A program made the translations under genes and the position numbers. Shown here in pieces: positions 52,179 through 63,999 of a stretch of DNA of 64,000 nucleotides. The stretch comes from Paludibacteraceae bacterium (GTDB lineage Bacteria; Bacteroidota; Bacteroidia; Bacteroidales; Paludibacteraceae): positions 23,031-87,030 of the forward strand of contig JAZRYY010000037.1 of NCBI GenBank assembly GCA_045600985.1, read 5' to 3'. Position 1 is the first letter of the stretch. Every line of letters starts with the position of its first letter. The notes beneath the pieces were generated by a model that made no database searches, was not told the origin of the DNA, and worked only from the letters and a program-made list of their open reading frames with translations.

Positions 52179-52252
52179 GGTGCGGTAGTTCAGTTGGTTA
52201 GAATATCGGCCTGTCACGCCGGAGGTCGCGGGTTCGAGTCCCGTCCGCACCG
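52179..52252 (+). tRNA. tRNA-Asp (anticodon GTC)
   Basis: Hand-folded cloverleaf. Acceptor GGTGCGG/CCGCACC, D-arm GTTC..GAAT, anticodon stem TCGGC/GCCGG with loop CTGTCAC, T-arm GCGGG TTCGAGT CCCGT, discriminator G. CCA is not encoded. Confidence 0.85.
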
Positions 52253-52305
52253 CAAAAGCATTGAGCATCGGCTCGATGCTTTTTTGCGTTTAGTGCAGGG
52301 CTCTG
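52221..52305 (+). repeat. Direct repeat copy 1 (tRNA-Asp 3' half plus terminator plus 20 bp)
   Basis: 85 bp repeated almost exactly at 52366-52452. Confidence 0.9.
52257..52286 (+). terminator. Terminator after tRNA-Asp
   Basis: agcattgagc / gctcgatgct stem (one G-T pair), loop atcg, then ttttt. Confidence 0.7.
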
Positions 52306-52705: not shown

Positions 52706-52803
52706 CGCGATTTATTGGGCGTATTTTGCCCGCGCACGTCCTCCTGCCCGCATGTGACAGGGGGAAAAACGTCGTACCTATACGTTTAAAATTTCCTAAT
52801 AGT

Positions 52804-53343
52804 ATGCCAGCAAATTCATCCCAAATATGGTGGGCGGTTTACACCCAGCCTTGTCACGAGAAGCGCGTTGCGCAGTCGCTCGCTGCCGCCGGTGAGGAGG
52901 TCTTTGTGGCAACCCGCAAGGAGATTCATCAGTGGTCCGACCGCAAGAAGGAGGTCGAGGTGCTCCTCATTCCTCACGTCATTTTCCTCCGTGCCACAAA
53001 AGAGCATCGTGAGGAACTTATTCGAACCAATCCTCGCTTAGTTGGCGTGATGAGAGAGGCTGTTTCTCGCACCCCTATCGTCATTCCTGATAGCCAGATG
53101 CAAACTTTCATCACTGCCGTTCTATCGTCCTCTACCGAACTCAAGTTCGTGTCAAAGGACGATCCACAATACACAGCCGTCAGTTTCAACCCCGGAGATG
53201 AAATCACTATCTTACGTGGCAAATTCAAAGGAACCAAGGGTTATATCATCAACGCCCAAAATGTCAACCGTTTTGTTGTTCGGGTGGGTTCCCTTGGTCT
53301 TCTAATTTTACCATGTGTTGATGTTGAACTCGTAGAAAGTTAA
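52804..53343 (+). CDS. UpxY-family (NusG-like) transcription antiterminator
   Basis: WWAVYTQPCHEKRVAQSL NGN-type N-terminus and KOW-like GDEITILRGKFKGTKGYI. Start placed downstream of the promoter. Confidence 0.75.
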   Translation: MPANSSQIWWAVYTQPCHEKRVAQSLAAAGEEVFVATRKEIHQWSDRKKEVEVLLIPHVIFLRATKEHREELIRTNPRLVGVMREAVSRTPIVIPDSQMQTFITAVLSSSTELKFVSKDDPQYTAVSFNPGDEITILRGKFKGTKGYIINAQNVNRFVVRVGSLGLLILPCVDVELVES

Positions 53344-55668: not shown

Positions 55669-55891
55669 TGTGCTGGGTTGTTGTAAAGTCAAGGAGTTGA
55701 TTATAATTTGTGCGACTGCAGTTATTTAAATTTTCTGCTTAAAACTTTAATTAGCAAAACCCTTGTTTAAGTTTTTGCTCCAAAATTTAAATAAGCTTCC
55801 TACTTATATTAAAAATATTATGCAAAATTTAAATTCTGGAACATATAAAGACCAAGGATACATTATACAAACATAATTCATTAATTTGAAA

Positions 55892-56137
55892 ATGGAGAAG
55901 AGATCATTATTAGAACTAGAGCAGATTGTTGATGGCGCAACTGACGCTATTGAATACAAACTGGTTGTAGCCTCTTTAATATCAATGATAGGTAAGTTTT
56001 CATTCGATAGTAAGTACGATTTAATCAATGTATTGCGCAGCCTCGTTTGTGAGTTTAACTACGAAATGAAGATTGATGTTGCTCGCAGAAAATGCAAAAG
56101 TTGCAATAACTGCAGTTTCGATGGCTCTTCAATATAA
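55892..56137 (+). CDS. Small hypothetical protein (81 aa from the ATG) with C-terminal CxxCxxC
   Basis: First ORF of the low-GC operon. KCKSCNNCSF at the C-terminus. The track start at 55886 is TTG. Confidence 0.4.
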   Translation: MEKRSLLELEQIVDGATDAIEYKLVVASLISMIGKFSFDSKYDLINVLRSLVCEFNYEMKIDVARRKCKSCNNCSFDGSSI

Positions 56138-56162
56138 TTAAAGACCTTAAAAACAATGTCTT

Positions 56163-56963
56163 ATGAACGATAGCATTTTTGTTTATATAATAGTTACACT
56201 ACTATCAGGAGTAGTTGGTGCTTTTATTGGTACTTATTTCGGAGCCATCTTCTCTGCACGAAGACAAGAGAAGTGCCTGAGAGAAGTACGGAAGATGGCA
56301 TTAAAGGCCATAAACATCTTCAAGAGCTACGCTCATGGAGGTAAGACTTTTGCCGAGACAGCAGATCAGTTCAATAATTCAATGAGCATCTCGGAGAAAA
56401 GAACAGTAATTGTTGCATTACATAAACTTGGTATCCCTGTTCAGGTCTTGTCTAATGAGACCTTCAATATATCAAAAGTTACATTTGCTTGTCAAATAAT
56501 TGATAAGGAAGAGTTGGATGCCATTGCAAGACAAATAGAATCGGGGCATTGTGATACACTATTTCACAGCGATCCGGAGAAGTATTTTGACGATAATATT
56601 CGTCAGAAGTCCTTACGATCTGTTGCAAGACGTTGGGTTCTGGAAGTTCTTGTCAACAGCAACATAAGTGAAGATCGCCAAATAGTCACATATCCCAAGG
56701 ATTGGTTCAACGCTTTTACATTAGGCGAGAGATATGCTCTTTGCGTGATGAAAGAAAGAATCTCTACGGAAGAGTATTTCAATTCTAATGCTCAAATTGA
56801 TAGCAAGAAAATCGCAGACCTTCTCCGCGACATAGATTGTGGTCTCTGGGACAACTGCTTGTATTGGGACTATACGAACTACCGAAGTGTCGTCAGCGCA
56901 ATGAGTCTCAATGCAACAGTAGAAGGGATGATTCATAACTCCTCAAATAGCGCACCGGAATAA
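56163..56963 (+). CDS. Hypothetical protein with a single N-terminal TM helix (266 aa)
   Basis: IFVYIIVTLLSGVVGAFIGTYFGAIF followed by a soluble domain. It lies 25 nt after the previous ORF and 12 nt before the next. Confidence 0.55.
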   Translation: MNDSIFVYIIVTLLSGVVGAFIGTYFGAIFSARRQEKCLREVRKMALKAINIFKSYAHGGKTFAETADQFNNSMSISEKRTVIVALHKLGIPVQVLSNETFNISKVTFACQIIDKEELDAIARQIESGHCDTLFHSDPEKYFDDNIRQKSLRSVARRWVLEVLVNSNISEDRQIVTYPKDWFNAFTLGERYALCVMKERISTEEYFNSNAQIDSKKIADLLRDIDCGLWDNCLYWDYTNYRSVVSAMSLNATVEGMIHNSSNSAPE

Positions 56964-56975
56964 TAGATAGAACTT

Positions 56976-59084
56976 ATGACAACAAATATATTACATTTAT
57001 CAATTAACGATCTATTGCTGGATCCTAACAATTATCGTTTTATTGATGCAGATCATTATGTCCATACCAGTGAAGAACGATATGCTGACGAAAAAGTACA
57101 ATCAAATACATATCGACTTGTTACAGGAAAAAATAATGATGGTATATTGGATCTTATTAGCAGTTTTAAAGCGAATGGATTCATCAATGATGGTGAAATT
57201 CAGGTTAGGAAACATGAACTGTCAGGCAAGTATCTCGTAATAGAAGGAAACAGACGAGTTTCTACCCTTTTGTATTTCCGTAGGATGTTGAAGGATGGAT
57301 ATGCTTTTGATAAAATTGGTGATGCCGATTTGAGCGATATCATCGTTAAAGAAATAAAAGACATTGATCAGCTTTCCTATAAAATTGCTATGGGATTGCA
57401 GCATGTAGCAGGAAAAAAGAAATGGAATCCTATTAATCAGGCACAACTTCTGTATGATCTCATTTATGAAAATAACGTACCAGAGGATGAAGTGTGTGCT
57501 TCTCTTGGTTTGTCAAAGCAGGCTGTGCGTAAAAGCATACGTACTTTATTTCTGATTAAAGCATATCGTCAAAGTGATTTTGGTGATCAAATGCAAAGTG
57601 CAAAGTACTCCTTCTTTGAGGAAGCTATAAAGAATCCTCAGATGCGTGATTGGTTAGGATGGAATGACGACAGTAAAAAATGTGAAAATTCATTGAATCA
57701 AGAACGCTTCTTTACATGGATTTCCAATACGACAGATGAATATGGTAATACCATATCCGCAATAATAGAGAAAAGTGTGGATGTGCGACGACTTACCTCA
57801 ATTATTACCAACGAGGCAGCATTAAGACATATGGAAGAAGTCCATTCCTTTGAAGATGCTTACACATATACTGCAAATGATAACAAAGCTGCTGTTCAAT
57901 ATGCATTAAACAGGTTGGAAACCACTCTTCCTACATTAATAGCTAATAGTGTTTATTTGTCCAAAAATGAACAAGATCAATTAAGGAGACTTGTTGCAGC
58001 ATTAAAACCAGTCGTTGATGCAGATGAGATACGTTTGGGCGTTTTCTCCTCTATTAGTGTCTTTAACGAACTGACATGTCATTTTTCAGAAGTAAAGATA
58101 CATAGATTCAGAGGAATTAGCGAAATGGCACTGTCCACGCTATCAGATGTGAACCTTTTTGTCGGTGAAAATAATTGCGGTAAAACAAGTTTGCTGGAAG
58201 CAATTTACATGCTGACACAACAGAACAATATCAAACGCTATCTTGAGATGGAACAATTGAGATCTAAGAATCAAGGTAGCATTCATACAGACTGGTTAGT
58301 TAATTATGTTGCAAAATCTTTTGATATAGAGGGTACATTCAATGGATATCGATGTAGTGTAAACTTTTCATGCAAACCTTCAGAAAGTAAAAAACTTGAT
58401 AAGAATAACTACATTACGACTCTATCATCAACTTCTTCAATTGATATGCCTGATGGCGTATTTAAGTCATACCTGCATCTTTACAATAATAAGCAGCCTG
58501 TTCTCAATTACGATAGAATCGCAAACTTGTGCCCGAGTGCATTATCTTCCTCTTATCGAAGAGACTTCAATGCATTTATAACGGCTCATCGTATTGCCGT
58601 GGAAAAAGGTGTAATGCCAGAAATCATAGATTTTCTTGTAAAGCATGTTGACCCTGCCATTCAAAATATTCAACTCACGGGGGAAGATGGCTCGAATCGT
58701 TTTGTAGTCACTACTCGTAATAATTCGATTGGGCAGGATTTGACTAAGTTCGGAGAAGGACTGCAGCGAGTATTTGAGATTTCTCTTTATATTGCAGCAT
58801 GTGCAAATGGTTGCTTATTTGTGGATGAGATAGATTCTGCAATTCATAAAAAACTGCTTCCTAATTTTATAAGGCAAGTCGTGACACTTTGTAATCGTTT
58901 TAATGTTCAGCTCTTTGTAACCACGCACAGCAAAGAATGTATAGACATTTTCGCTAATGCGGGACTTGGTACACAATTGTCAGCATATAGATTACGTCCT
59001 CTTGGTAACGATTGCACCATAAATTATACAGATGGTGAGAATCTGAAAGAAATGATTGACATGTTTAATGTAGATATACGATAA
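56976..59084 (+). CDS. ParB/Srx-like N-terminal domain + HTH + ABC/OLD-type (AAA_15/AAA_21-like) ATPase fusion
   Basis: LSINDLLLDPNNYRF and YLVIEGNRRVSTL (ParB-box-like). HTH-like EDEVCASLGLSKQAVRKSIRTL. Walker A GENNCGKTSLLEAI (397-410), signature-like FGEGLQR, Walker B CLFVDEIDSAIH, H-loop LFVTTHSKE. Confidence 0.7.
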   Translation: MTTNILHLSINDLLLDPNNYRFIDADHYVHTSEERYADEKVQSNTYRLVTGKNNDGILDLISSFKANGFINDGEIQVRKHELSGKYLVIEGNRRVSTLLYFRRMLKDGYAFDKIGDADLSDIIVKEIKDIDQLSYKIAMGLQHVAGKKKWNPINQAQLLYDLIYENNVPEDEVCASLGLSKQAVRKSIRTLFLIKAYRQSDFGDQMQSAKYSFFEEAIKNPQMRDWLGWNDDSKKCENSLNQERFFTWISNTTDEYGNTISAIIEKSVDVRRLTSIITNEAALRHMEEVHSFEDAYTYTANDNKAAVQYALNRLETTLPTLIANSVYLSKNEQDQLRRLVAALKPVVDADEIRLGVFSSISVFNELTCHFSEVKIHRFRGISEMALSTLSDVNLFVGENNCGKTSLLEAIYMLTQQNNIKRYLEMEQLRSKNQGSIHTDWLVNYVAKSFDIEGTFNGYRCSVNFSCKPSESKKLDKNNYITTLSSTSSIDMPDGVFKSYLHLYNNKQPVLNYDRIANLCPSALSSSYRRDFNAFITAHRIAVEKGVMPEIIDFLVKHVDPAIQNIQLTGEDGSNRFVVTTRNNSIGQDLTKFGEGLQRVFEISLYIAACANGCLFVDEIDSAIHKKLLPNFIRQVVTLCNRFNVQLFVTTHSKECIDIFANAGLGTQLSAYRLRPLGNDCTINYTDGENLKEMIDMFNVDIR

Positions 59085-59085
59085 A

Positions 59086-59898
59086 ATGGTAGTAAAGATT
59101 CTTTTAGTTGAAGGAAGACATGATGCTGCCTTTATCGGCCGTATCTTAAAAGCCAATGGTTATGAAGATAGCAAATTGACAATCGGTGAATATCCTGAGT
59201 TTATCAAAGGCTATCTTACGAAGTTCTTTGAAGGAGCGCATATAGAGGATTCTACAATCAAGAACGTGGTTTCTAACTTATTCCTTCCTTCTTCATCACT
59301 TTCAGTATCGTCGGATCCTAATCAAATGTTGATTATTTTCCCCATGGGCGGTGATGCACAAAAAGACAGAAGAAGAGAACTTATTAGAAAGCTGTACAAA
59401 ATATTTAGCAACCCAATGTTTCAGGATGGAAAAGACTCACTTAAGATTATCTATAATCTTGATGCCGATGAACATGGTATTGCATTTCGAGAGCAGCAGG
59501 TTAATGAGGAATTACATGAGATAACAGATTCATCTATTCCTGAAATACATAATACATCTTGGACTCCATTTTGCGGAATTCAATGGGGATTATATGTGTT
59601 TGCTGATCCAACCACAGGAAAAGGGAAACTGGAGAATTTAGTACTGCCCCTTATTGAAGATAATAAAGAGGACCTAAAGTCATTAGTTGATAATTTTGTT
59701 TTCGAGCGTCCCAAAATGAATTATTGGAACACAAAATACAAACAGTACGATGAAGAGAAAGCCCGTATTAGTATGATGTGCCAAATGGAAATTTCGGGAG
59801 CTGCAAATACCACATTGCTCGTCAAAACAGGTCTAATTGATGATAGAAAACTTCAGACAGGTATTTATAAAGCAATAGTTGACTATATAACTTCATGA
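59086..59898 (+). CDS. Toprim-like protein (DUF3226/DUF4435/DUF4276-like)
   Basis: Starts 1 nt after the ATPase stop. KILLVEGRHDAAFI (Glu9) and IIYNLDADEHG (Asp126-x-Asp128) fit the E...DxD Toprim pattern. 270 aa. Confidence 0.55.
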   Translation: MVVKILLVEGRHDAAFIGRILKANGYEDSKLTIGEYPEFIKGYLTKFFEGAHIEDSTIKNVVSNLFLPSSSLSVSSDPNQMLIIFPMGGDAQKDRRRELIRKLYKIFSNPMFQDGKDSLKIIYNLDADEHGIAFREQQVNEELHEITDSSIPEIHNTSWTPFCGIQWGLYVFADPTTGKGKLENLVLPLIEDNKEDLKSLVDNFVFERPKMNYWNTKYKQYDEEKARISMMCQMEISGAANTTLLVKTGLIDDRKLQTGIYKAIVDYITS

Positions 59899-60348
59899 TT
59901 GATTATTTGTGTGTTTATTTACCCTAGTTCTTCATCTTGACTCAAGTTTTGAGAATATGATCGAACCATCCATCTAAAATATTCTTCAAATGCTTGATAC
60001 ACGTCCCTTGATACTGCAAGGAACCGCTTACGAGTCCTTCGGTCGTAAAATTTGCCCCATTCTACTTAACCAGTTTATAACAGTGTGTCACACAGTGGAT
60101 TATGTGTGCTCAAATTCATGATGGCAATTCCATTTGGGACCGATTTGGGACTATGAAGGAAAAGGGTGTGGCGTAGGTGTGAGGGACATCTTGACATTAC
60201 TCAGAAGACCCTCCCTGTTGCCGAAAGCATCAAATCGTCGAAAAGAATTAAAATCAGGTAAGAACTCTCTCACAAGGAATAAACCATTTCGGTGGCGTCA
60301 ACGATTTGGTCTCTACCCATATCTTTTCGTTGACCTCACTGATATGAT

Positions 60349-60648
60349 CGTTTCGTCATCGTTACCTTATTTTGTAAAGTCGCTCACCCGTCCCTTGAAT
60401 GGGATGTAAAATCGTTATCGTAGCAAAGCGTATCGTCATCGTCATCGTACGAAGTGGTACACCCGTCCCCCGTCGCGTGCATTCCGATGCTGTGCTATTG
60501 GAGGTGAGGACTTGCTTTTGGGACCTGCTTTGATGATCCGTTGAATGGAGATTTGGATTATATAACAATGAACGCGTATAAGTAAGATCAACTCAATAAG
60601 TCATCGTTATCGCCATCGTCTTCGTACGAAGCAAACACCCGTCCCCCG
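60349..60648. repeat. Three related segments (catcgt-type hexamer stutter followed by CACCCGTCCC) in a 1.2-kb non-coding stretch
   Basis: Copies at 60349-60395, 60411-60471 and 60599-60648. The last two share tcgtacgaag..acacccgtccccc. Confidence 0.65.
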
Positions 60649-61046
60649 AATATTCTTGGAGTATCTCCACGTTTTTGTCCGCTCGTCATCCTCAAAGAGG
60701 TGACGCTTTCATAGCGTAAGCGGAGAAAGAACCCTTCACAACCCCCGTAAGGGCTCCTCAAACAATTCATAACCCCAAATAGAGAACAATAAAACAAAAC
60801 GATATGTTAATACCTAATGTAAACCTGACCGGTAAGACCTCGGCTGGTGATGCTTAGGTGAAACCGCCCTCCACACCCTATTGCCTATCAGCAACAGAGT
60901 GTTCCGGGCTAAACAGAGAACAATACGCCAGAGTCTTCCCATCGCCTGCCTTGAGCCAGTCGAAGGGGTCAGACACAGGCTCAAAAATATAATCCACGAA
61001 AATTCGCGGATCATTCACGGACATTCGCGTTAAGGAAAAACAACCC

Positions 61047-61117: not shown

Positions 61118-62365
61118 ATGCATATACTCGTAACCGGTGCGAAAGGTTTCGTAGGAAAGAACCTCTGCGCACAACTCAACAACATCAAAGAAGGCAAGGC
61201 TAAATGCTATGGCGACCTCGTAGTAGAGGATGTCTATCAGTACGATATCGACTCTACGCCAGAGCAACTTGATGAATACTGCCAAAAGGCTGATTTCGTT
61301 TTCAACCTCGCTGGTGTCAACCGTCCTCAAAACCAGGAGGAATTTATGCAGGGCAATTTCGGCTTCGCTTCTACGCTGCTTGATACCCTCAAGAAACACC
61401 ACAACACTTGTCCGGTGATGTTGTCCAGTTCTATCCAGGCCACGCTTGCCGGCCGTTTCGGCACGTCTGAATATGGCAAGAGCAAGAAGGCAGGTGAGGA
61501 ACTTTTCTTCGATTATAGCAAAGAAACGGGCGCTAAGGTACTCGTATATCGATTCCCTAATCTTTATGGCAAGTGGTGTCGTCCTAACTACAACTCGGCT
61601 GTGGCTACGTTCTGCAATAATATCGCCAACGACCTGCCTATCACGGTCAACGACCCAACCGTAGATATGGAACTTCTCTATATCGACGACCTCGTTGAGG
61701 AAATGATCTGTGCACTCAAAGGCGAGGAACACTATTGCACTTTCGATGGTGTCAATGCCATACCACTTGAAACCTCTGAAACTTTGGAACTTGAAACTAA
61801 AGGCGAACATGCGTACGCCTACTGTCCCATCACCCATCACGTCAAGTTGGGCGAGATTGTGGACCTCCTCAATCAGTTTGCCGAGATGCCAAAGACCCTC
61901 ATGATTCCTGAGATCCCTGCCGATTCGTTCGCAAAACGCCTCTATAGCACTTTCCTCAGTTATCTACCTAAAGAGAAAGCCATCTTCGATCTTAAGATGA
62001 ACGTAGATCCACGCGGTAGCTTTACGGAATTGGTTCATACCCTCAATTGCGGTCAGGTCAGCATCAACATCTCCAAGCCGGGCATTACCAAGGGCCAGCA
62101 TTGGCACCACACCAAATGGGAGCAGTTCATCGTCGTTTCCGGCCATGGTCTCATCCAACTCCGCAACGAGAATGATCCTAATGGCGAGATTCTTAATTAT
62201 GAAGTCTATGGCGATAAGATTCAGTCCGTCCTCATGCTCCCTGGCTACACTCACAATATCATCAATCTGAGCGATACTGAAGATTTAGTCACAGTCATGT
62301 ACTGCAACGAGATCTTTAACCCCAATCGCCCGGACACTTACTTCGATCCCGTGGAGCCAAAGTAG
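61118..62365 (+). CDS. fnlB: CapF/WbjC(FnlB)-like bifunctional SDR + cupin enzyme of UDP-L-FucNAc-type sugar synthesis
   Basis: ILVTGAKGFVGKNL, LAGVNRP, LSSSIQA, FPNLYGKWCRPNYNSAVATFC, with a C-terminal cupin-like half. This closely parallels the CapF layout. Confidence 0.7.
   Translation: MHILVTGAKGFVGKNLCAQLNNIKEGKAKCYGDLVVEDVYQYDIDSTPEQLDEYCQKADFVFNLAGVNRPQNQEEFMQGNFGFASTLLDTLKKHHNTCPVMLSSSIQATLAGRFGTSEYGKSKKAGEELFFDYSKETGAKVLVYRFPNLYGKWCRPNYNSAVATFCNNIANDLPITVNDPTVDMELLYIDDLVEEMICALKGEEHYCTFDGVNAIPLETSETLELETKGEHAYAYCPITHHVKLGEIVDLLNQFAEMPKTLMIPEIPADSFAKRLYSTFLSYLPKEKAIFDLKMNVDPRGSFTELVHTLNCGQVSINISKPGITKGQHWHHTKWEQFIVVSGHGLIQLRNENDPNGEILNYEVYGDKIQSVLMLPGYTHNIINLSDTEDLVTVMYCNEIFNPNRPDTYFDPVEPK
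61766..61797 (+). repeat. CTGAAAC-family stutter repeat in frame in the fnlB-like gene (peptide LETSETLELET)
   Basis: Reads cttgaaacctctgaaactttggaacttgaaac, in codon phase 1 of the ORF, in the linker between the SDR and cupin halves. Confidence 0.8.
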
Positions 62366-62393
62366 TTTCAAGTTTCATGTTCCAAGATTCAAG
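62366..62393 (-). repeat. Inverted copy of the TTGAATC/TGAAAC repeat family, left flank of the four-helix-bundle gene
   Basis: Plus strand reads tttcaagtttcatgttccaagattcaag. The reverse complement is cttgaatcttggaacatgaaacttgaaa. Confidence 0.65.
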
Positions 62394-62395
62394 AT

Positions 62396-62797
62396 ATGGC
62401 AAAAGCAGAAAAGTTTGAAGATTTGGTAATCTTCCAGAAAGCACGTGAACTTTGTAAAGAAGTTTATCGTGTGACAAATCAAGAACCGTGGAAATACGAT
62501 ACACGATTTGTACAGCAAATCCATGCAGCTGTTGGCAGCATTATGGATAATATTGCTGAAGGTTACGAACGTGATGGCAACAAGGAGTTCAAGAACTTCC
62601 TATATATTGCCAAAGGATCATGTGGTGAGGTTCGCTCTCAGATAATTCGAGCTTCTGATGTTGGTTTTATAGATTCAGAAACATCAACGAAGTTATATAA
62701 TGATTGTATAGCTCTCAACAAGAGCATTGCAGCCTTTATCAAGAGTCTTCGTGTGGGCGGAATTTCCGGTATCAAGTACATGGAACCTGAATCCTGA
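62396..62797 (+). CDS. Four-helix-bundle protein (23S rRNA intervening-sequence protein family)
   Basis: FEDLVIFQKARELCKEVYRVT..., DNIAEGYER, AKGSCGEVRSQ signature blocks. The last codons (MEPES) are supplied by the flanking repeat. Confidence 0.8.
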   Translation: MAKAEKFEDLVIFQKARELCKEVYRVTNQEPWKYDTRFVQQIHAAVGSIMDNIAEGYERDGNKEFKNFLYIAKGSCGEVRSQIIRASDVGFIDSETSTKLYNDCIALNKSIAAFIKSLRVGGISGIKYMEPES

Positions 62798-62849
62798 AAC
62801 CACCTGAATCCTGAAACCACCTGAATCCAGAAACTTGAATCCTGAAACC
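62785..62849 (+). repeat. 17-bp tandem repeat acctgaatcctgaaacc, about 3.8 copies
   Basis: Exact units at 62785-62801 and 62802-62818, variant acctgaatccagaaact at 62819-62835, partial tgaatcctgaaacc at 62836-62849. Confidence 0.9.
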
Positions 62850-62904
62850 AAAGAATATCGAAAGTATAACAAATAATATAAACATATAATAAACAAACGT
62901 TCTT

Positions 62905-63999
62905 ATGAGTATTTTCAAAGACAAAGTCCTCATGATTACCGGTGGTACCGGTTCATTTGGTAATGCAGTTCTCAACCGTTTCCTGAAGACCGACATTGCA
63001 GAGATCCGCATCTTCTCTCGTGACGAGAAGAAGCAGGACGATATGCGTCACCTCTATCAGGTAACCATGCCCGAGGTAGCCAACAAAATCAAGTTCTACA
63101 TCGGTGATGTTCGCGACCTCCAGTCTTGCCGCAACGCAATGCCTGGTGTTGACTACATCTTCCATGCAGCAGCCCTCAAGCAGGTGCCTTCTTGCGAGTT
63201 CTTCCCTATGGAAGCCGTTCGCACCAATGTCATTGGTACCGACAATGTCCTCACCGCTGCTATCGAGGCCAAGGTGGGCGCTGTTATCTGCCTTTCAACC
63301 GATAAGGCTGCCTATCCTATCAACGCCATGGGTATCACCAAGGCTATCGAGGAGAAGATTGCAGTAGCAAAGAGTCGTTACTCAGGTGATACCAAGATCT
63401 GTTGCACCCGTTATGGCAACGTGATGTGCTCTCGTGGCTCCGTTATCCCTCTGTGGATTGACCAGATTCGCAACGGTAATCCTATCACCATCACCGAACC
63501 AAAGATGACACGCTTCATCATGTCGCTTGAAGAAGCCGTTGACCTCGTTCTCTTCGCTTTCGAGCATGGTCAGAATGGTGATATCCTCGTCCAGAAAGCT
63601 CCTGCCTGCACCATCCAAACTCAGGCAGAGGCTGTAATCGATCTCTTCAAGCATCAGTTCGCACAGAACTTGAATCCTGAAACTCTGAAACCTGAAACCT
63701 CAGAACCCGAAATTCGTGTCATTGGCATCCGTCACGGTGAGAAGCTCTACGAGACCCTCCTCACCAACGAAGAGTGTGCCAAAGCCGAGGATATGGGCAA
63801 CTTCTATCGCGTTCCTGCTGACAACCGTGGCTTGAACTACGATAAGTACTTCAAGGAAGGTGACGAAAAGCGTAACACCCTCACCGAGTTCAACTCCGAC
63901 AATACCACCCGTCTCAACCTCGAAGAGACCAAGTCCAAGATTGCCGCACTCGAGTATATCCAGAATGAGCTCAAAGGTATCGAAAATATAGCTAAGTAA
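62905..63999 (+). CDS. fnlA: FnlA/CapE/WbjB-like UDP-GlcNAc 4,6-dehydratase/5-epimerase
   Basis: KVLMITGGTGSFGNAVLNRFL, IRIFSRDEKKQDDMR, YIGDVRD, HAAALKQVPSCEF. 364 aa including a repeat-derived insert. Confidence 0.8.
   Translation: MSIFKDKVLMITGGTGSFGNAVLNRFLKTDIAEIRIFSRDEKKQDDMRHLYQVTMPEVANKIKFYIGDVRDLQSCRNAMPGVDYIFHAAALKQVPSCEFFPMEAVRTNVIGTDNVLTAAIEAKVGAVICLSTDKAAYPINAMGITKAIEEKIAVAKSRYSGDTKICCTRYGNVMCSRGSVIPLWIDQIRNGNPITITEPKMTRFIMSLEEAVDLVLFAFEHGQNGDILVQKAPACTIQTQAEAVIDLFKHQFAQNLNPETLKPETSEPEIRVIGIRHGEKLYETLLTNEECAKAEDMGNFYRVPADNRGLNYDKYFKEGDEKRNTLTEFNSDNTTRLNLEETKSKIAALEYIQNELKGIENIAK
63664..63712 (+). repeat. CTGAAAC-family stutter repeat in frame in the fnlA-like gene (peptide QNLNPETLKPETSEPEI)
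   Basis: Reads cagaacttgaatcctgaaactctgaaacctgaaacctcagaacccgaaatt, in codon phase 1. Positions 63676-63692 are identical to the reverse complement of 28779-28795. Confidence 0.85.

Follow-up and report, generated by a model that had tools for sequence, protein, structure and literature searches.

A two-gene cassette that is regarded here, with moderate confidence, as a defence system was characterized in a stretch of 64,000 nucleotides from a Paludibacteraceae bacterium (GenBank assembly GCA_045600985.1, contig JAZRYY010000037.1, positions 23,031 to 87,030 of the forward strand; this whole stretch is called the window, and all positions refer to it). The genes A and B encode a 702-residue fusion of a ParB-like unit with an ATP-binding cassette (ABC) ATPase and a 270-residue protein of the DUF3226 family, respectively. 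The N-terminal half of protein A (residues 1 to about 365) is a portable ParB-like unit and not a domain followed by a linker, and the same unit occurs as a free-standing protein encoded next to Mrr-type nuclease genes.

Gene A (56976..59084, plus strand) begins with ATG and its open reading frame is uninterrupted. Residues 8-702 of its product align with positions 12-714 of PDLC04607 (PDC-M38A), a 715-position hidden Markov model (HMM) of PADLOC, at E = 6.8e-215. Gene B (59086..59898, plus strand) adjoins gene A on the same strand and matches PDLC04615 (PDC-M38B) at E = 4.8e-47, so that both genes belong to the PADLOC system PDC-M38. A protein search returned 496 relatives of protein A, 120 of which were listed; nearly all of the listed relatives are about 700-710 residues long and align over 99-100% of the query with 36-43% identity, and about a quarter of them carry a precomputed Pfam ParB_N match. 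The listed relatives are chiefly from Bacteroidota, including Flavobacterium, Chryseobacterium, Muribaculaceae and Sphingobacteriia. When one genome was scanned for each GTDB species, at least 228 genomes proved to encode a relative, and the 80 loci kept from these genomes, on which the counts of neighbouring genes rest, also span Campylobacterota, Myxococcota, Desulfobacterota, Firmicutes, Verrucomicrobiota, Planctomycetota, Spirochaetota, Ignavibacteriaceae, Acidobacteriota and Gammaproteobacteria. Given at least 120 full-length relatives, the 228 species genomes and a dedicated 715-position HMM, the fused ParB-ATPase architecture is genuine and already catalogued as PDC-M38. An earlier reading of this DNA, made from the letters and their translations (the sequence-only reading), had called it an unusual domain fusion; the fusion is real, and the word unusual says too much, as the fusion has its own PADLOC model and a precedent for its proposed logic in the Menshen system. 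Four of the five PDC-M38A models in PADLOC describe ATPases of about 360-380 residues that have no ParB unit, and protein A can be classed by its profile match as a fused subtype of PDC-M38. One protein (P0146, 908 aa) has an additional N-terminal extension of about 185 aa ahead of the ParB unit.

The sequence-only reading had placed ParB-type boxes at residues 5-105 or so and a helix-turn-helix (HTH) segment at about 168-192. The two boxes that it quoted, INDLLLDPNNYRF and VIEGNRRVSTL, were located exactly at residues I10-F22 and V88-L98 of protein A, and their core is invariant in 81 homologues; the invariance figures for the gene A family refer to these 81 sequences, which come from many phyla. 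The HTH segment corresponds to a weak, sub-threshold Pfam HTH_ParB match at residues 150-197 (E 0.006-0.009) and to modelled helices at 152-165, 170-177 and 181-198. The NCBIfam model parB_part also matches below its threshold (residues 40-95, E = 2.2e-5). The assignment to ParB would thus be weak if made from protein A as a single sequence, and for this reason it was checked with relatives and with structure. In the gene, the ParB-type N-terminal domain with its nucleotide-binding fold (residues 1 to about 130) is assigned to 56976..57365 (plus strand) by AlphaFold2, Foldseek, profile alignment and invariance, and the HTH_ParB region to 57423..57569 (plus strand) by the Pfam match, HMMER alignment and the model helices.

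Residues 1-365 were modelled with AlphaFold2 using 36 homologues. The mean predicted local distance difference test (pLDDT) score of the model is 86.4; the score is at least 90 as far as about residue 290, and only the last 15 residues are disordered. A Foldseek search of this model against the PDB gave 24 matches at E<=0.001, every one of which is a ParB-family chain. The top matches are chains of Noc (7ol9, 7nfu), KorB (8qa9, 8qa8) and ParB, the last from Myxococcus (7bnk, 7bnr), Caulobacter (6t1f, 7bm8), Bacillus (6sdk) and Thermus (1vz0). The ParB-family matches have E-values of 8e-6 to 1e-3 at a probability of 1.00, with 190-280 aligned columns that cover both the N-terminal domain and the HTH; for Noc 7ol9, KorB 8qa9 and ParB 7bnk, 6t1f and 6sdk the range is 8e-6 to 1e-4 over about 250 columns. 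In a viral structure library, phage ParB/Spo0J proteins are the top matches to the N-terminal model. At the level of the family, Pfam ParB_N matches 15 of 19 members (best E 8.6e-6), as does HTH_ParB (15/19, best E 2.3e-5). A family profile searched against PDB sequences finds Caulobacter ParB at E = 0.005, and HMMER places the HTH stretch on the HTH of ParB and Noc chains. Residues 1 to about 260 accordingly form an N-terminal domain plus HTH of the ParB/Noc/KorB type, a resemblance that goes well past chance. The sequence-only reading had named a wider kinship with ParB, sulfiredoxin (Srx), DndB and DUF262 and had proposed structure prediction with Foldseek as a check. The kinship with ParB, Noc and KorB stands, as these lead the structural matches and the Arg-rich box II (R93, R94) is invariant, whereas Srx appears in the Foldseek list at E = 0.19 and GmrSD_N (DUF262) matches just 4 of the 19 family members, weakly.

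The stretch between the HTH and the ATPase, described in that reading as a linker of about 180 aa, does not have the character of a linker. The conserved extension (residues 199-260, with SDFGDQ, WLGW and W.S motifs) and the helical region after it (residues 261-350) together occupy 57570..58025 on the plus strand, as judged by invariance and the model. Residues 197-260 hold the invariant positions Y197, S200, D201, G203, F214, W226, W229, W248 and S250, and residues 267-347 are confidently modelled as helices. When 1.84 billion representative proteins were searched with a profile built from residues 1-255, 2950 matched at E<=1e-3 and 285 of these at E<=1e-30. The top 150 included 144 new sequences, of which 57 are fusions at least 650 aa long and 53 are free-standing, with a length of 340-410 aa. 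The free-standing proteins cover positions of about 10-362 of PDLC04607, which is the entire N-terminal half. In these proteins D16, N19, R21, Q42, the EGNRR motif and the Trp equivalent to W150 are invariant, and conservation is at least 90% at S63, G68 and the equivalents of H143 and G146.

The partner of the free-standing unit is a nuclease gene of the Mrr_cat family (PF04471). A gene of this family is the next one downstream in all four contigs with a complete downstream gene, and of 66 metagenome loci whose downstream sequence was long enough, 56 have it after the unit, as counted with an HMM built from the four Mrr_cat neighbour proteins. The module of free-standing unit and Mrr_cat is widespread and occurs at loci L007, L008-L010, L012 and L097-L176. 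PADLOC has no dedicated model for this module, and the nuclease matches PDC-S02 weakly. At L012:2540-4398 the ParB-like and Mrr_cat pair is flanked by an N6_N4 methyltransferase and a HinfI-type endonuclease, and at L140:3468-5372 the ParB-like unit and the Mrr domain lie in a single open reading frame of 635 aa. Another protein (P0052, 698 aa) follows the fused family to residue 631 or thereabouts and then continues into Mrr_cat-like sequence, with loss of the ATPase end; this could be the product of recombination that linked the two arms, or a join made in assembly.

Two unrelated effector arms are thus found with one and the same conserved unit, and no other comparative evidence argues as strongly that the ParB-like unit would supply the input of these systems (sensing or targeting of DNA, of a nucleotide, or of both) rather than their output. 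DNA would be the likeliest thing to be sensed or targeted, given the Mrr-type DNA endonucleases of the sister arm.

The putative nucleotide pocket is conserved across the family and departs from the canonical ParB pocket. D16, N18, N19, Y20, R21, Q42, D59, G68, E90, G91, N92, R93, R94, H143, G146 and W150 are invariant in 81/81 sequences. They include the DPNNYR motif (residues 16-21; 57021-57038, plus strand) and the EGNRR motif (residues 90-94, plus strand), of which GNRR lies at 57246-57257. In Caulobacter ParB, Jalal et al. tested Q58 and R60 of P-motif 1, S74 and G79 of the C-motif, which contacts cytosine, E102, R103 and R104 of GERR, and E135, N136 and R139 of ENxxR (PMC8367383). HMMER aligns S63 and G68 of protein A with S74 and G79 of the Caulobacter protein (6t1f); S63 is kept in 80 and G68 in all of the 81 sequences. 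In box II, GNRR is aligned on GERR, with both arginines (R93, R94) kept and the glutamate replaced by the invariant N92. The QPR of box I is apparently split by about 20 residues into the invariant DPNNYR and the invariant Q42 of VQQR, and in the alignment with Noc, FQPR falls on VQQR. The equivalences for boxes I and III rest on sequence alignment and spacing. Strong selection appears to act on the pocket, whose ligand is probably a nucleotide and may be a pyrimidine. The E102A mutant of Caulobacter ParB retains binding of cytidine triphosphate (CTP) and clamp closure and loses hydrolysis (PMC8367383). In the present family an invariant Asn takes the place of the catalytic Glu of GERR, so that little or no hydrolysis is predicted; hydrolysis is probably slow or absent, and the pocket would then be a switch rather than an enzyme.

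The C-terminal half of protein A (residues 369-702; 58080..59081, plus strand) is assigned to the AbiLi/AriA/OLD class of ABC ATPases by Pfam, PADLOC models and invariance. AAA_15 matches residues 371-482 (E = 2.7e-18) and AAA_21 matches residues 553-652 (E = 1.5e-16). The Walker A motif GENNCGKT (residues 397-404) is encoded at 58164-58187 and the Walker B motif (residues 613-618, with D617 and E618) at 58812-58829, both on the plus strand; the H-loop histidine is H651 and the signature-like motif is GEGLQR. The residues G397, G402, K403, G593, G595, D617, E618, H624 and H651 are invariant. Among PADLOC models the half is matched best by the stand-alone PDC-M38A ATPases (3.8e-47), then by AbiLi (4e-33) and AriA (1.4e-19); the models for Gabija, Septu and the Menshen ATPase NsnB (2.9e-13) score below AriA. 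Residues from about 369 to 702 are thus an intact AbiLi/AriA-like ABC ATPase, in agreement with the sequence-only reading, which had put an OLD/AriA-like ATPase at about 372-702.

Gene B starts two nucleotides past the stop codon of gene A, and its product is assigned to DUF3226 by Pfam (E = 1.7e-11); no other Pfam family was found in it. An open reading frame of the B type lies directly downstream of A in 72 of the 80 genome loci by an automated HMM check and in one more on inspection. One of the 80 loci lacks room for a downstream gene, and adjacency of A and B is therefore found in 73 of the 79 loci with room. A recognisable B gene is absent from five other, mostly high-GC loci (L067, L078, L082, L093 and L094). 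At a locus of Myxococcota (L085:3161-4348), a second ABC ATPase-like open reading frame follows the fused ATPase in the place of DUF3226. A search with the single sequence of protein B found two relatives, and a profile of five sequences found 16. The AlphaFold2 model of protein B (pLDDT 79) has one strong structural match, the uncharacterised DUF3226 protein PH0156 (2p62, E = 1e-6), and a sequence search of the PDB gave a marginal N-terminal alignment to PH0156 and nothing else. Invariant in protein B are E9-G10-x-H12-D13 after the first strand (2-8), D126-A-D128 ending a central strand (118-126), and E183. Toprim nucleases have a four-stranded alpha/beta fold in which a conserved Glu follows strand 1 and a DxD follows strand 3; the layout of protein B may be that expected of a Toprim-like metal-dependent nuclease, and B is the presumed effector of the cassette.

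Genes A and B are considered, with somewhat better than even support, to form a defence cassette of the class of ABC ATPases with nuclease-like partners, to which AbiL, PARIS, OLD and Gabija are related; the ParB unit would bind DNA and nucleotide, and the ATPase would control the DUF3226 partner. Under this scheme the ATPase would have gained the portable unit of about 365 residues through gene fusion. The unit would bind DNA, and probably a nucleoside triphosphate (NTP) as well, with little or no hydrolysis, and its DNA- and nucleotide-bound state would be passed to the fused ATPase. The ATPase would then release, recruit or activate the DUF3226 protein, presumed to be a metal-dependent Toprim-like nuclease. 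As a speculation, the ATPase dimer might take the place of the missing C-terminal dimerisation domain of ParB and so allow a clamp-like closure. The sequence-only reading had proposed that the ParB module could be a sensor that licenses the effector; the pairing of the same unit with Mrr-type nucleases lends indirect support to a sensing or targeting role, and CTP binding and the licensing itself are inferences.

Several points weigh against this scheme or narrow it. The box III motif ENxxR, which is essential for CTP binding in Caulobacter ParB, is missing: there is no E-N pair, and the corresponding segment of protein A is MGLQHVAGKKKW. In the family it is replaced by M-G-L-x-H-(V/I)-x-G-x-(K/R)-(K/R)-W, with H143, G146 and W150 invariant and basic residues at positions 148-149. 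Residue 44 (nucleotides 57105-57107) is Asn in protein A (KVQSNT) and Arg in 76 of 81 relatives (VQQRT); P0002, which is 71% identical to protein A, also has Asn at this position. By alignment, position 44 may match the CTP-binding Arg of box I of ParB, and the N44 allele might bind nucleotide differently. CTP is not an assured ligand in any case, as ParB folds bind CTP, ATP or GTP according to a 2025 survey (10.1101/2025.10.10.680097). The ParA-binding motif LG(R/K)GL and the C-terminal dimerisation domain of ParB are absent from the sequence of protein A, and a closed clamp is not assured without them. The HTH could simply autoregulate the operon. On the side of the effector, the sequence-only reading had spoken of an ATPase-Toprim effector; the partner proved to be a DUF3226 protein with no sequence match to the AriB, AbiLii, GajA or Toprim families or to any other known nuclease family in PADLOC, Pfam and the PDB, and its only match to a Toprim fold, the C-terminal Toprim region of OLD (6nk8), is weak (E = 0.44). 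The PDC systems as a whole are described by their authors as untested phage defence candidates (10.1101/2024.01.29.577857).

A bolder proposal is made tentatively, and it is considered possible but doubtful: the GNRR unit of about 365 residues would be a nucleotide-gated DNA clamp or switch, serving as a portable sensor of invading DNA that licenses two or more unrelated effector arms, among them the ABC ATPase plus DUF3226 arm and the Mrr-type PD-(D/E)xK arm. If true, this would be the first case of an immune pathway that relies on a ParB/Noc/KorB-type switch driven by CTP (or another NTP) instead of one of the DUF262 type. ParB-type CTP switches act in chromosome and plasmid segregation, nucleoid occlusion and transcription control. 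We know of no immunity role shown for the HTH-bearing clamp type.

The ParB-like unit might instead be a regulator, in which a KorB-like HTH and nucleotide switch represses or tunes transcription of the cassette or restrains a toxic partner in the manner of an antitoxin while the ATPase senses the infection. Among the best structural matches is KorB (8qa9, 8qa8), which represses transcription in a CTP-dependent way, and in PARIS it is the ATPase AriA that acts as the sensor (PMC13064643). The unit is, however, tightly fused to or paired with an ATPase or Mrr in hundreds of unrelated loci whose upstream sequences differ, whereas a repressor acting in cis should vary together with its operator (no search aimed at operators was made), and the invariant pocket argues for a conserved biochemical step over locus-specific recognition of DNA. 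This explanation is considered unlikely. A little less likely again is an enzymatic role for the ParB-fold domain as a nuclease, NTPase or phosphotransferase, comparable with ParB-like nucleases, Osa, the ATPase toxin ToxB and the serine kinase SerK; the domain would itself be an effector or would modify DNA or nucleotides, and the ATPase and DUF3226 would be accessory to it. The ParB/Srx superfamily does include enzymes and an ATP-dependent toxin (10.64898/2026.05.05.722872). The unusual invariant His143 and Asn92 in the pocket would fit catalysis, as would the weak Srx and serine kinase fold matches lower in the Foldseek list, but the best matches by far are of the DNA-clamp type with N-terminal domain and HTH, and the nearly constant pairing of the free-standing unit with an Mrr_cat nuclease suggests that the ParB unit is not the effector.

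It is improbable that the cassette is a module for maintenance or competition of mobile elements, acting in a partition-like manner or through plasmid exclusion or addiction. ParB proteins are classically segregation factors, the low-GC island that carries the cassette appears to be acquired, and Mu Gam and DUF932 genes occur close to one of the related loci. Against these points stand the absence of a ParA partner (no parA neighbour was found here or in the related loci examined), of the ParA-binding motif and of the ParB C-terminal domain, as well as neighbours that are mostly defence or toxin-antitoxin genes, the housekeeping flanks in Flavobacterium psychrophilum and an ATPase half that is closest to defence ATPases. 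The last alternative, an artefact of assembly or gene calling near 58000, had been raised in the sequence-only reading as a danger to the fusion; it is refuted by the uninterrupted open reading frame, the full-length homologues in at least 120 protein clusters, the 228 species genomes and the 715-position HMM.

The favoured defence cassette can be set beside several known systems. AbiL (AbiLi and AbiLii) and PARIS (AriA and AriB) are likewise two-gene systems, with an ABC ATPase of the AAA_15/21 type and, after it, a small nuclease-like partner, and both have been described as an ABC ATPase with a Toprim nuclease (PMC13064643; PMC11464382). AbiLi and AriA have no ParB unit, whereas protein A has one. 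The locus is not AbiL, as the AbiLi HMM matches the ATPase half but protein B has no AbiLii match at E<=1, and it is not PARIS, as AriA is a secondary match and protein B has no match to AriB or DUF4435 at E<=1. In PARIS, AriA senses the phage protein Ocr (PMC13064643); this is sensing of a protein trigger, whereas protein A has a built-in module that is predicted to bind DNA.

The Menshen system follows the proposed logic of a ParB-superfamily DNA sensor that acts on an OLD-type ABC ATPase and then on a nuclease (PMC12065111). Its proteins are NsnA (ParB-DUF262 plus ParBDB), NsnB (OLD-type ABC ATPase with a DUF3696 tail) and NsnC (nuclease), and the same logic is proposed for A and B. In Menshen the sensor and the ATPase are separate proteins, whereas they are fused in protein A, and the effector families differ. 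The ParB domain of Menshen is of the DUF262 type (QRxxxW, DGxQR, FxxxN), whereas that of protein A has EGNRR and is of the ParB/Noc/KorB type with an HTH. No third gene of the NsnC type is present at the locus, which is thus not a Menshen locus. GmrSD, SspE, BrxU and DndB likewise use ParB-superfamily domains of the DUF262 type to couple DNA sensing to a defence nuclease (PMC12065111); these sensors form a separate subfamily without a ParB-type HTH. PD-lambda-5, a validated defence of Escherichia coli, has a related ParB N-terminal domain in its protein A (PDLC03998, E = 3.4e-9, residues 5-98); it carries a methyltransferase domain label, is described as a compacted system of restriction-modification and abortive infection (PMC9519451), and has neither ABC ATPase nor DUF3226. 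With the ParB/Noc/KorB clamps, protein A shares the fold of the N-terminal domain and HTH, the box II arginines and the cytosine-contacting Ser and Gly. It differs from them in having GNRR for GERR, a replaced box III and an apparent insert of about 20 residues between PN and Q.R of box I, and in being fused to an ABC ATPase without ParA-binding motif, C-terminal domain or parA neighbour.

Public records label the proteins of the gene A family merely as "AAA family ATPase", and Pfam ParB_N is below threshold for most members, so that surveys of ParB fusions based on Pfam would miss the family. The fusions named in the main text of the 2025 ParB-fold survey are those with HNH, UPF0020, methyltransferase, DUF3850, DUF4417 and CBS domains, and a fusion with an ABC ATPase is absent from that main text (10.1101/2025.10.10.680097). 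Full-text literature searches found no text describing the ParB content of the PDC-M38A fusion and no paper mentioning PDC-M38 or DUF3226. The system is catalogued and its logic has the Menshen precedent. Found in at least 228 species, the gene A family offers a compact and widespread test case, in which R93/R94, N92, H143, K403 and E618 of protein A and E9, D126 and D128 of protein B are sites for mutation. The stand-alone PDC-M38 ATPases without the ParB unit and the sister module of ParB unit and Mrr nuclease form a natural comparison set. Work on the family could reveal how defence by an ABC ATPase and a nuclease gains a DNA-sensing input instead of the protein-trigger sensing of the PARIS type.

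The cassette lies in a low-GC island of about 4.3 kb (55700..60050), identified from the composition profile, in which the GC content is 0.28-0.43 against 0.46-0.57 in the flanks. On one side of the island is a gene for an UpxY-family antiterminator (52792-53343), which scores 126 bits where the cut-off is 100; on the other are capsule biosynthesis genes (61118-63999). The latter include FnlA-like (488 against 730 bits) and WbcJ-like (324 against 500 bits) genes, both below their NCBIfam cut-offs. The setting is a capsule polysaccharide locus of the Bacteroidales style. A tRNA-Asp (52179-52253) was identified with Rfam, which gave no other RNA. The cassette would be horizontally mobile and was apparently acquired with the island. 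In Muribaculaceae (L001-L003) a related cassette stands beside GmrSD, RelE and DUF4435 genes in a polysaccharide locus, flanked by UDP-glucose dehydrogenase and glycosyltransferases, and defence genes may repeatedly settle in the capsule loci of Bacteroidales. In Flavobacterium psychrophilum a related cassette has HigBA as a neighbour and housekeeping genes as flanks, and in one Ignavibacteriaceae genome another is found beside SNF2, PglZ and GmrSD_N genes. Cassettes of this family are thus located in defence islands.

Two further open reading frames are present in the island upstream of gene A. One encodes 266 residues with a hydrophobic N-terminal helix (56163..56963, plus strand) and ends 13 nucleotides before gene A; the other encodes 83 residues (55886-56137, plus strand). 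Neither matches a family in Pfam, PADLOC or NCBIfam. None of the related loci examined carries the 266-residue open reading frame upstream of A, and the records hold no exact copy of its product; it is doubtful that this frame belongs to the system. A scan for sigma-70 promoters and terminators, a method ill-suited to Bacteroidota, gave no more sites than shuffled sequence did. AT-rich inverted repeats with arms of 29 nucleotides (76% complementary) lie at 55715-55794, exactly at the sharp left edge of the island. No matching repeat is present at the right edge, and no flanking direct repeats were found at the island ends. Short imperfect direct repeats are clustered at 60349-60651, for example TATCGTCATCGTCATCGTACGAAG at 60431 and 60608, together with CACCCGTCCC motifs. 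This cluster sits in the gap of about 1.2 kb between gene B and the capsule genes, which has no long same-strand open reading frame and no Rfam match. Between two of the capsule genes, a gene at 62396-62797 (plus strand) encodes a four-helix-bundle protein of the "23S rRNA intervening sequence protein" family (TIGR02436).

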